Shown: positions 6,001 to 9,000 of the stretch, piece by piece
How positions within the stretch are numbered: position 1 is the stretch's first letter
How the letters are laid out: the number at the start of each line of letters is the position of its first letter
Source of the DNA: Escherichia coli
GTDB taxonomy: Bacteria; Pseudomonadota; Gammaproteobacteria; Enterobacterales; Enterobacteriaceae
DNA length: 64,000 bases
Assembly: GCF_041248615.1 (NCBI RefSeq)
Contig: NZ_CP158426.1
Reading direction: 5' to 3' (one strand)
Position numbers: made by a program

Positions 6001-9000
6001 GTCATCGCCGGTGGCCAGGAAAACATGAGCCGCGCACCACATGTTCTGACTGATAGCCGCACCGGTGCACAGCTTGGCAATAGCCAGTTGGTTGACAGTC
6101 TTGTGCATGATGGGTTGTGGGATGCCTTCAATGATTATCATATTGGTGTCACCGCCGAAAATCTGGCTCGCGAATATGGCATCAGCCGTCAGTTGCAGGA
6201 TGCTTACGCACTTAGCTCGCAACAAAAAGCGCGAGCGGCGATTGACGCCGGACGATTTAAAGATGAGATCGTCCCGGTAATGACCCAAAGTAACGGGCAG
6301 ACGTTGGTTGTTGATACCGATGAACAGCCACGCACTGACGCCAGCGCAGAAGGCTTAGCCCGTTTAAATCCTTCATTTGATAGTCTCGGTTCTGTGACAG
6401 CGGGTAATGCATCATCCATAAACGATGGCGCAGCTGCGGTAATGATGATGAGCGAAGCCAAAGCACGAGCGTTGAATTTACCCGTGCTGGCCCGCATTCG
6501 CGCATTTGCCAGCGTTGGTGTAGATCCGGCATTGATGGGAATTGCGCCGGTGTATGCGACCCGCCGTTGCCTGGAGCGTGTAGGCTGGCAGTTGGCTGAA
6601 GTCGATCTTATCGAGGCTAATGAAGCGTTTGCTGCACAGGCGCTTTCGGTTGGCAAGATGCTTGAGTGGGATGAGCGTCGGGTCAATGTCAATGGTGGCG
6701 CGATCGCACTCGGTCACCCGATAGGCGCTTCCGGTTGCCGAATCCTGGTTTCTCTGGTTCATGAAATGGTGAAACGTAATGCCCGCAAAGGACTGGCAAC
6801 GCTTTGTATCGGCGGGGGCCAGGGTGTGGCATTGACCATTGAACGTGACGAATAGCTCTGCATTTCCTCCTTACCGATAAATATCTGCCGTCATTAATCT
6901 GTTGAATAATGATGGCTGGCAAGTCGACATACATTTTCTGGGCTCCCTCATTTTTCCATTCTCATGACATATTCGTGATCGACACTGCACTTTTTTTAAT
7001 CCTTAACTTAAAAATGAAACATTGTTTTATTTTTAATTGAAAACCCTAGCCCATGGGCATATTATCCCTTTATAGAGAAAACGAAACAGTGTTTCACTAT
7101 CGTTTTCTATTTTCACGCTTCACTGATTATCGGAGGTTGATGTGGACGTAAGACAGAGCATCCACAGTGCGCACGCAAAAACGCTGGATACCCAAGGGCT
7201 GCGCAATGAATTTTTGGTTGAAAAGGTATTTGTCGCCGATGAGTACACCATGGTTTACAGCCACATTGACCGAATTATTGTTGGCGGCATTATGCCGATA
7301 ACTAAAACGGTTTCCGTTGGCGGGGAAGTTGGTAAACAACTCGGCGTAAGCTATTTCCTTGAACGTCGCGAGTTAGGTGTTATCAATATTGGCGGTGCCG
7401 GTACGATTACTGTCGATGGCCAATGCTATGAAATCGGTCACCGCGACGCCCTGTATGTTGGTAAAGGTGCAAAAGAAGTTGTCTTTGCCAGTATTGATAC
7501 CGGCACTCCGGCGAAGTTTTATTACAATTGCGCACCCGCGCATACGACGTATCCCACCAAAAAAGTCACACCGGACGAAGTATCTCCAGTCACGTTAGGC
7601 GATAACCTCACCAGTAACCGTCGCACGATTAACAAATATTTTGTCCCGGATGTACTGGAAACCTGCCAATTGAGTATGGGGCTGACGGAGCTGGCTCCGG
7701 GTAACTTGTGGAACACCATGCCGTGTCACACCCACGAGCGCCGGATGGAAGTTTATTTCTATTTCAATATGGATGATGACGCCTGCGTTTTCCACATGAT
7801 GGGGCAGCCGCAAGAAACGCGTCATATTGTGATGCATAACGAGCAGGCGGTGATCTCCCCGAGCTGGTCGATCCATTCCGGTGTCGGAACCAAAGCTTAT
7901 ACCTTTATCTGGGGCATGGTCGGTGAAAACCAGGTCTTTGATGATATGGACCATGTGGCCGTTAAAGATTTGCGCTAGTTGTGGGCATAAACGAATAAGG
8001 TATTGTTATGATTTTAAGTGCATTTTCTCTCGAAGGTAAAGTTGCGGTCGTCACTGGTTGTGATACTGGACTGGGTCAGGGGATGGCGTTGGGGCTGGCG
8101 CAAGCGGGCTGTGACATTGTTGGCATTAACATCGTTGAACCGACTGAAACCATCGAGCAGGTCACAGCGCTGGGGCGTCGTTTTTTAAGCCTGACCGCCG
8201 ATCTGCGAAAGATTGATGGTATTCCAGCACTGCTGGATCGCGCGGTAGCGGAGTTTGGTCATATTGATATCCTGGTGAATAACGCCGGATTGATTCGCCG
8301 CGAAGATGCTCTCGAGTTCAGCGAAAAGGACTGGGACGATGTCATGAACCTGAATATCAAGAGCGTATTCTTCATGTCTCAGGCAGCGGCGAAACACTTT
8401 ATCGCGCAAGGCAATGGCGGCAAGATTATCAATATCGCGTCAATGCTCTCCTTCCAGGGCGGGATCCGTGTGCCTTCTTATACCGCATCAAAAAGCGGCG
8501 TGATGGGTGTGACGCGATTGATGGCGAACGAATGGGCTAAACACAACATTAATGTTAATGCGATAGCCCCGGGTTACATGGCGACCAACAATACTCAACA
8601 ACTACGGGCAGATGAACAACGTAGCGCGGAAATTCTCGACCGCATTCCAGCTGGTCGTTGGGGACTGCCGAGTGACCTGATGGGGCCGATAGTGTTCCTT
8701 GCCTCCAGCGCTTCAGATTATGTGAATGGTTATACCATTGCCGTGGATGGCGGTTGGCTGGCGCGTTAATTCATTCTTCTTACTTTTATGACCCTGCCGC
8801 ATGGCAGGGTTTTTTATACCTGTAGATCATCATAATCCATATCATGGTTATGAAATAATCCATATTAATTATCAATTAATGAACTTTATGAATTTTATCT
8901 GCTGTAAAATTAGGTGGTTAATAATAATCTCAATAATTCAACTTAATTTGAAAATTGGAATATCCATCACATAACGACATGTCGCAGCAATTTAATCCAT

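Follow-up and report, generated by a model that had tools for sequence, protein, structure and literature searches.

KdgR operators, as known from Escherichia coli (kdgK, kdgT, tabA/yjgK, ygjV) and Dickeya dadantii (pel, ogl, kduI, kdgT), are 21-bp quasi-palindromes of the form AAATGAAACAnTGTTTCATTT. The targets of the regulon function in the catabolism of KDG, hexuronates or pectin; repression is relieved by substrates that yield KDG, and CRP acts as a co-activator. The assignment of kduI-kduD to the KdgR regulon of E. coli is accepted, and comparative genomics had predicted the boxes of the pair two decades ago, with E. coli kduI appearing as a KdgR-box gene in Rodionov et al. (2000, 2004), as quoted in PMC5559549 and in PMC6958661. 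Deletion of kdgR increases kduD mRNA in a study that describes kduID as an already known target of KdgR with a KdgR box (PMC6958661). Likewise, kdgK, kdgT, kduI and kduD are overexpressed in a strain carrying a deletion that includes kdgR (PMC6892915). Galacturonate or glucuronate induce the kduI promoter 7- to 54-fold (PMC3578941). In addition, CRP-cAMP shifts a kduI promoter fragment in gels, and kduI is listed among the CRP-activated genes (PMC8085971).

The DNA analysed here, referred to as the window, is a 64-kb stretch of the E. coli chromosome that carries yqeF, kduI, kduD and araE. A preliminary description of this sequence reported a perfect 13-bp inverted repeat in the interval 7060-7141, about 50 bp before the kduI start. 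This repeat is indeed present, in a single copy in the window, at 7083-7095; it reads GAAACA-G-TGTTTC (GAAACAGTGTTTC), its two 6-bp arms being exact reverse complements about the central G. The centre of the palindrome, at 7089, lies 53 bp before the kduI GTG (7142) and its 3' edge 46 bp before. The palindrome is very probably the core of a KdgR operator, termed O2, which would be the promoter-distal of two such operators at the kduI-kduD promoter. The features of the locus are as follows.

6974..6989, no strand assigned: CRP-like site CGTGA-TCGACA-CTGCA, centred near -90.5 relative to the putative start; the exact site is tentative
7012..7032, no strand assigned: predicted KdgR box O1, AAATGAAACATTGTTTTATTT, with the core GAAACA-T-TGTTTT at 7016-7028; centre near -50; 19/20 to the consensus, 27.4 bits
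7037..7042, plus strand: -35 hexamer TTGAAA of the kduI promoter (promoter scan; 1.9-2.0 bits across 81 sequences; PMC3946193)
7060..7065, plus strand: -10 hexamer TATTAT (promoter scan; the TA..AT positions conserved at 1.9 bits)
7072, plus strand: putative transcription start, a conserved A, 7 nt past the -10 hexamer (judged by its place in the promoter and its conservation at 1.9 bits)
7079..7099, no strand assigned: predicted KdgR box O2, AAACGAAACAGTGTTTCACTA, holding the palindrome 7083-7095; centre near +17, in the leader; 17/20, 20.8 bits
7132..7137, plus strand: Shine-Dalgarno sequence GGAGGT of kduI (from the sequence; conserved at 1.7-2.0 bits)
7142..7978, plus strand: kduI, 5-dehydro-4-deoxy-D-glucuronate isomerase, GTG start (open reading frame and RefSeq annotation of the identical locus)
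8008..8769, plus strand: kduD, 2-dehydro-3-deoxy-D-gluconate 5-dehydrogenase, 29 bp after kduI (open reading frame and RefSeq annotation)

The symmetry of the repeat carries little information of its own. Perfect 6-1-6 inverted repeats occur 20 times in the window, as compared to 18.1 +/- 3.7 times in dinucleotide shuffles, and we have rejected the rarity of the palindrome as an argument. The same figure is what speaks for a functionless chance palindrome in AT-rich intergenic DNA. Against this stand the match to the KdgR motif and the uniqueness of this match in the window, the conservation of the position across genera and the restriction of the variants to bases seen in other boxes (see below). 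The conservation data effectively refute the chance explanation, the probability of which we consider negligible. The palindrome is significant because of its sequence and its position, not because of its 6-1-6 symmetry.

The consensus used for comparison was the published KdgR box AAATGAAACAnTGTTTCATTT, as quoted in PMC5559549. A degenerate 17-mer consensus, AATRAAAYRNYRTTTYA, was not found in the literature searched and was not relied on. O2 matches the box at 17 of 20 positions and O1 at 19 of 20, while none of the other sites among the 128,000 positions scanned exceeds 14/20. Dinucleotide shuffling of the AT-rich intergenic region produced a match as good as 17/20 in only 0.04% of 5000 trials, so that the match of O2 to the KdgR box exceeds chance. 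Unlike the consensus, O2 carries C instead of T at position 4, in addition to mismatches in the flanks. A scan with a KdgR matrix and a comparison with the kdgK/kdgT operators had been suggested as a check. The matrix used derives exclusively from the KdgR-type boxes of E. coli kdgK, kdgT and tabA; these were identified by their fit to the consensus in the upstream regions of regulon genes, not by footprinting. With it, O1 scores 27.4 bits, the top of the window, and the 21-mer holding the palindrome ranks second in 64 kb with 20.8 bits; the best unrelated site reaches 11.7 bits (14/20). When the ygjV box is added to the matrix, the scores are 26.9 and 20.1 bits, respectively. Judged from these matches, O2 is the weaker member of the predicted operator pair and O1 the stronger. 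A separate operator specific for kduD was rejected, since no KdgR-type box above 11.7 bits is found elsewhere in the window.

O1 and O2 form a direct repeat (D3), the former lying 67 bp upstream of the latter. Between them sits a sigma-70 promoter, TTGAAA-17-TATTAT (7037-7065), with O1 stopping 4 bp short of the -35 hexamer. The -10 hexamer is TATCAT in K-12 and in the 7 other compared alleles that cover it, versus TATTAT here, and the kduI hexamers TTGAAA-17-TATCAT are listed among the promoters bound by the RpoD holoenzyme (PMC3946193). A mapped transcription start of kduI was not found in the literature searched. Upstream of O1, the CGTGATC...CA block is conserved at 1.6-2.0 bits in the 81-sequence footprint (see below). 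It is probably an activator site, that is, a neighbour of the palindrome and not a part of it. An intrinsic terminator was also considered and rejected, as nothing terminator-like is present in 6800-7200; the stem is A/T-rich and lacks a following T-run.

The arrangement of the boxes sets kduI apart from the other E. coli KdgR promoters that were scanned. At kduI alone, the promoter is flanked by two strong boxes at a distance of 67 bp, whereas kdgK and tabA have one box each, and kdgT and ygjV a strong box with a weak one about 20 bp off. A parallel in layout is the gal operon, where RNA polymerase binds between the related palindromes OE and OI, with CRP upstream. Unlike for gal, there is no evidence of looping at kduI: the spacing of 67-68 bp corresponds to about 6.4-6.5 helical turns, which places the boxes out of phase, and each kduI box is near enough to the polymerase to act alone. 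Cooperative looping between O1 and O2 is not claimed, given that their phase differs by approximately 0.4 helical turn at 67-68 bp and that the fixed promoter may account for the conserved distance.

The following model can be proposed. Without inducer, both boxes would be filled by KdgR dimers. KdgR bound at O1 would take the docking DNA of the RNA polymerase alpha C-terminal domain beside CRP near -90, and KdgR bound at O2, in the downstream part of the RNA polymerase footprint, would block open-complex formation or promoter escape. Hexuronates or pectin products would give rise to 2-keto-3-deoxygluconate, the inducer of KdgR, upon which the repressor would leave and CRP-cAMP-dependent transcription of kduID would ensue. 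A steric mechanism of this kind is what we infer for each of the boxes. In the literature searched, neither reported binding of purified E. coli KdgR to the kduI bases nor a published KdgR ChIP-exo profile was found. The binding of KdgR to exactly these bases is a prediction from sequence.

The footprint comprises 81 distinct upstream sequences, namely 80 Enterobacteriaceae kduI loci and the window. Conservation is concentrated in islands, namely the CRP-like block, O1, the -35 and -10 hexamers, A7072, O2 and the Shine-Dalgarno sequence; the stretches that separate these are unconstrained. In 79 of the 80 orthologous loci, O1 reaches 12 bits or more. O2 is often weak elsewhere, with a median of 13.9 bits and at least 12 bits in 46/80, the 99th percentile of the background being 9.6 bits. 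In 73/80 loci, O1 and O2 are 67 bp (52 loci) or 68 bp (21 loci) apart; this constancy may be no more than a consequence of the promoter, which is fixed between the boxes. Motif score, promoter position (with respect to the putative start) and phylogenetic footprint all speak for O2 as a KdgR operator.

Within E. coli, the exact 35-mer around the palindrome is found in 3790 of 5405 genomes. Because about 30% of the genomes are without this exact sequence, the perfect symmetry of the palindrome is incidental and not the conserved property. The variants in the O2 core, G7083A, T7090C and C7095T, are all transitions, and each of the variant bases has a counterpart in another box, at the equivalent position or its mirror image (G7083A and T7090C in kdgT, C7095T in O1). 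O1 is invariant in two E. coli allele sets, of 9 and 5 alleles.

The reading of the repeat as a KdgR operator, put forward in the preliminary description, is thus supported by the 17/20 match to the consensus, the score of 20.8 bits, the conservation of its position across Enterobacteriaceae and the literature on kdgR deletions. It was nevertheless incomplete: the stronger partner at 7012-7032 was missed, as were the location of the site downstream of the promoter, in the leader, and the reported binding of PlaR in vitro. Since the regulation of kduID by KdgR is already known, the result has little importance beyond annotation. What is added here is a map for this strain, in which the palindrome appears as the weaker, leader-located half of a conserved pair bracketing the promoter, together with the conserved CRP-like site upstream of O1 and the incidental nature of the perfect symmetry. 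Such a map could help in the design of kduI reporters and of KDG or hexuronate biosensors, and in separating KdgR control from PlaR control.

The location of O2 within the putative transcribed leader raises the question of whether the inverted repeat acts as RNA, by folding, close to the 5' end of the kduI leader, into a stem-loop that would stabilise the mRNA or alter its translation. The E. coli leader (7072-7150) folds with -19 kcal/mol (z = -1.95), and only 5 of 200 shuffles fold as well. Underlying this fold is a longer inverted repeat, specific to E. coli (approximately 7076-7084 with 7100-7108), that encloses the palindrome; the palindrome alone would give a 1-nt loop. However, the region of the outer stem, 7100-7110, is unconserved (0.1-0.6 bits), and the consensus fold of 20 orthologous leaders amounts to -1.97 kcal/mol, with 5 pairs and 0 compensatory changes. 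No Rfam family matches the leader, the best hit scoring 20.9 bits where the gathering score is 74. A conserved RNA hairpin was rejected on these grounds, namely the lack of conserved structure or covariation in the 20 leaders and of an Rfam family. Moreover, an RNA role would not explain why the KdgR-type motif is also present upstream of the promoter (O1) and at kdgK, kdgT and tabA. An action as RNA is highly improbable.

A more serious competitor of KdgR is its paralogue PlaR (YiaJ), the other E. coli repressor of the IclR family with a recognition palindrome of the GAAAC-N3-GTTTC type, for which the box could be mainly or also an operator, so that PlaR would repress kduID with or instead of KdgR. 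The plaR-yiaK box of this regulator is, like O2, a palindrome of the type GAAA(C/T)-N3-GTTTC that overlaps a promoter, and ATnTGAAACnnnGTTCAnTT, the PlaR box as published, is a palindrome very close to that of KdgR. In PMC6958661, genomic SELEX gives a PlaR peak at kduI, which is counted among the regulatory targets; deletion of plaR raised kduD mRNA; and gel shifts with PlaR were positive for 12 of 12 target probes, kduI being assumed to be one of the twelve. It must be noted that these gel shifts used 1-5 uM protein (PMC6958661). Other observations argue against a PlaR operator. The YiaJ i-modulon consists of 10 genes and reproduces the YiaJ regulon with a precision of 1.0 and a recall of 0.91, yet the same study places kduI and kduD in the signal of kdgR loss and not in the YiaJ module (PMC6892915). 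The plaR-yiaK box ATTTGAAATCAAGTTTCGCAT, the top PlaR target, scores 6.6 bits on a KdgR-type matrix as opposed to 25-30 bits for the kduI boxes, the latter scores being partly circular since this matrix contains both kduI boxes. The PlaR and KdgR motifs differ by this measure, which rests on the yiaK box as a single PlaR site. Finally, induction by hexuronates and the function of kduI suit the KdgR regulon. A role of the box as a PlaR operator is improbable, and KdgR remains the preferred regulator for O2.

The sequences of O2 in other genera, AAACGGAAC-NNN-GTTTCG, have a further bearing on this point. Their half-site, CG(G/A)AAC, resembles one half of the yiaK PlaR box, CGAAAC, which speaks for PlaR. 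It is conceivable, if doubtful, that O2 represents a distinct, selectively maintained class of operators, AACG(G/A)AAC-N3-GTT(T)CGTT, fixed at 67-68 bp from O1. Such a class could be tuned for another IclR paralogue such as PlaR, which would imply a two-repressor logic at one promoter; alternatively, a KdgR tetramer could read O1 and O2 together in a geometry specific to kduI. Across genera, O2 deviates symmetrically from the KdgR boxes: their T at position 4 is replaced by C, and their A at position 18 by G. This deviation at positions 4/18 in other genera is not explained by a plain KdgR box. The half-sites of O2 are conserved (1.7-1.9 bits), whereas the central 3 nt vary freely.

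The yqeF-kduI intergenic region (286 bp) was found in 5418 of 5426 complete E. coli genomes, and the RefSeq annotation of an identical locus gives yqeF, kduI, kduD and araE in the same order and orientation. The perfect inverted repeat that the preliminary description placed about 50 bp before kduI is present, with its centre 53 bp upstream of the start codon.

Features of the kduI region (window coordinates)
5671-6855, plus strand: yqeF
7012-7032: KdgR box O1, AAATGAAACATTGTTTTATTT, 19/20 to the consensus
7037-7042: -35 element TTGAAA, from a promoter scan
7060-7065: -10 element TATTAT, from a promoter scan
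7079-7099: KdgR box O2, AAACGAAACAGTGTTTCACTA, 17/20 to the consensus
7083-7095: palindrome GAAACAGTGTTTC, occurring once in the window; two 6-bp arms, each the exact reverse complement of the other, with a single G between them
7142-7978, plus strand: kduI, GTG start preceded by GGAGGT at 7132-7137
8008-8769, plus strand: kduD

Symmetry by itself carries no weight, because perfect 6-1-6 inverted repeats are as frequent in the window (20) as in dinucleotide shuffles (18.1 +/- 3.7). The KdgR consensus of Rodionov et al., quoted in PMC5559549 as AAATGAAACAnTGTTTCATTT, is more telling. Besides O1 and O2, nothing above 14/20 appears on either strand of the whole 64-kb window, and when the AT-rich intergenic region was shuffled 5000 times, only 0.04% of the shuffled sequences reached 17/20. 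A box also lies upstream of each of the other KdgR-regulon genes whose K-12 loci were fetched: TAATGGAACACTGTTTTAATA at kdgK (15/20), AAATAAAACAGCGTTTCAATT at kdgT (17/20), AAATGAAACGTTGTTTTAATT at tabA/yjgK (17/20) and TTATGAAACGCCGTTTTTTAT at ygjV, the last from a pattern search rather than a consensus match. A symmetrised matrix was built from the kdgK, kdgT and tabA boxes only, and is hence independent of kduI. With this matrix, whose boxes were located by consensus and are not footprinted sites, O1 ranks first in the window at 27.4 bits and O2 second at 20.8 bits, as against 11.7 for the next site (background mean -17.3 bits, sd 7.0). Adding the ygjV box changes little (O1 26.9, O2 20.1 bits). 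The motif scores thus support the proposal of a KdgR operator at the palindrome, which was incomplete in that it overlooked O1, the stronger box. Among the E. coli KdgR-type promoters scanned, only that of kduI is flanked by two strong boxes. Elsewhere in the window, GATGGAAACATTGTTTTTTCGC at 28437-28458 has the core GAAAC-N3-GTTTT and falls in the stretch spanned by the listed ORFs 28110-28517 and 28478-28825; it is probably a chance occurrence, since it scores below 15/20 and is absent from the top matrix hits.

O1 and O2, centred at 7022 and 7089 and therefore 67 bp apart, are related both as a direct repeat (D3) and as an inverted repeat (I2). Between them lies the sole sigma-70-like promoter in 6800-7200, TTGAAA and TATTAT with a 17-bp spacer; the same promoter/terminator scan found no terminator in the region. 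TTGAAA-17-TATCAT is the kduI entry, with an H-NS flag, among the promoters that Shimada et al. 2014 report as bound by RpoD holoenzyme in vitro (PMC3946193). The -10 element is TATCAT in K-12 and in seven other fetched divergent E. coli alleles that span it, and TATTAT in the window (position 7063). Among the matches listed, only three genomes are 100% identical to the window over the entire intergenic region, and TATTAT may be a rare promoter variant. A mapped kduI transcription start was not found in the literature searched; we infer +1 to be the conserved A at 7072. Relative to it, O1 is centred near -50 and ends 4 bp before the -35 element, and O2 is centred near +17.

A KduI search of representative genomes gave 80 Enterobacteriaceae loci (90-99% protein identity) from Escherichia, Citrobacter, Enterobacter, Kluyvera, Kosakonia, Lelliottia, Trabulsiella and others. 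When 81 distinct upstream sequences of 200 bp each were aligned, the high-information columns formed discrete islands with near-zero information in between.

Conserved islands upstream of kduI (window coordinates)
6974-6989: CGTGATC...CA
O1
7036-7044: ATTGAAAAC
7060-7065: TA..AT
7072: A
O2, as AAA.CG.AAC...GTTTC
GGAGGT

O1 reaches at least 12 bits in 79 of the 80 loci (median 23.5). Outside E. coli O2 is weaker, with a median of 13.9 bits and at least 12 bits in 46/80, the 99th percentile of the background being 9.6. Its position is nonetheless fixed, 67 bp from O1 in 52 of the 80 loci and 68 bp in 21. Its consensus elsewhere, AAACGGAAC-NNN-GTTTCGTTA, keeps the half-sites while the central three bases vary freely, and differs symmetrically from boxes of the O1 type in having C at position 4 and G at position 18. 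Judged from the alignment, fixed half-sites about a free centre are the signature of a dimeric-protein site. The palindrome might instead act as a stem-loop in the kduI leader. The fold predicted for positions 7072-7150, the E. coli leader, has an energy of -19 kcal/mol (z = -1.95) and is dominated by a longer imperfect inverted repeat at 7072-7109, ATAGAGAAAACGA ... TCGTTTTCTAT, that encloses the palindrome. However, this E. coli-specific outer stem is unconserved in other genera, the consensus fold of 20 orthologous leaders reaches only -1.97 kcal/mol, its five pairs showing no compensatory change, and Rfam returned nothing near threshold. The RNA hairpin is not supported, and was rejected for want of a conserved structure in orthologous leaders.

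Within E. coli, 3790 of 5405 genomes carry the window's 35-mer around O2 unchanged. Fetched alleles carry G7083A, T7090C, or C7095T with flank changes; O1 is unchanged in two sets of them (9 and 5). All three O2 core changes are transitions, and the variant bases recur at the same or mirror-image position of the kdgT, kdgT and O1 boxes, respectively. Therefore it is the box that is maintained, not the perfect palindrome.

The inducer of KdgR is 2-keto-3-deoxygluconate. Without it, KdgR would sit on both O1 and O2. O1 would span the DNA between the -35 element and a CRP-like site, the expected position of the RNA polymerase alpha C-terminal domain in class I activation, and O2 would fall within the downstream footprint of the polymerase. 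The CRP-like block, CGTGA-N6-CTGCA at 6974-6989, is centred near -90.5 from the inferred start and holds 1.6-2.0 bits at CGTGATC and CA in the 81 sequences. As a candidate site, it fits the published shift of a kduI promoter fragment by CRP-cAMP; kduI is listed as CRP-activated (PMC8085971). The kduI promoter responds to galacturonate and glucuronate with 7- to 54-fold induction (PMC3578941). The 67-68 bp spacing corresponds to about 6.4-6.5 helical turns; looping is not claimed, because the boxes are out of phase and a fixed promoter can explain the spacing.

KdgR has an IclR-family paralogue, PlaR (YiaJ), that possibly binds the kduI region. According to Shimada et al. 2019 (PMC6958661), genomic SELEX placed PlaR at kduI, gel shifts at 1-5 uM were positive with all twelve target probes tested, and kduD mRNA, from a gene termed a known KdgR target, is higher in a plaR deletion and likewise in a kdgR deletion. 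In an i-modulon study, however, the YiaJ module comprises 10 genes in close agreement with the YiaJ regulon, and a strain without kdgR overexpresses kduI and kduD (PMC6892915); moreover, the yiaK box, the primary one for PlaR, reaches no more than 6.6 bits on a KdgR-type matrix that includes both kduI boxes. Given the i-modulon assignment and this low score, we regard KdgR as the main repressor of kduI-kduD, with some PlaR binding possible.

PMC6958661 and PMC5559549 credit the E. coli kduI KdgR boxes to Rodionov et al. 2000 and 2004; published work also shows derepression in kdgR mutants (PMC6958661 and PMC6892915). We found no report, in the literature searched, of E. coli KdgR directly bound to these bases. 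The palindrome as a KdgR operator is a supported and correct reading, though incomplete and already known.

In E. coli strain D53-1 (L016 1748-2445), an IS1 element interrupts the yqeF-kduI spacer at a point upstream of about window position 6960; the promoter and the two KdgR boxes remain intact. A metagenome-assembled contig labelled Deltaproteobacteria (L017 1-560) carries a kduI 99% identical to that of E. coli, but upstream similarity ends 20 bp before the start codon (window 7122), so that the contig lacks the promoter and the two operators; contamination, chimeric assembly or an insertion is the probable explanation. A preprint proposes a 23-residue microprotein, a predicted KduI binder, encoded in an intergenic region that adjoins kduI of E. 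coli 536 (PMC11188072); no 23-codon ORF was found in the spacer of the window, whose ORFs have 21, 27, 32, 39 and 43 residues. A third KdgR-like box, TATCAAAACnnnGTTTCATT, lies 240-390 bp upstream of kduI in many loci of Citrobacter, Enterobacter, Kluyvera and Lelliottia, where the yqeF-kduI spacer is longer and contains a segment missing from E. coli. In two Citrobacter loci, this box (L034 2639-2659) adjoins the 5' end of a minus-strand match to STnc280, a Salmonella sRNA family (L034 2567-2648, L031 2582-2660; 34-41 bits, sub-threshold, the gathering score being 80). On the minus strand, a hairpin and then a T-run mark the end of the L034 match, and the Citrobacter segment may be a KdgR-controlled small transcript.
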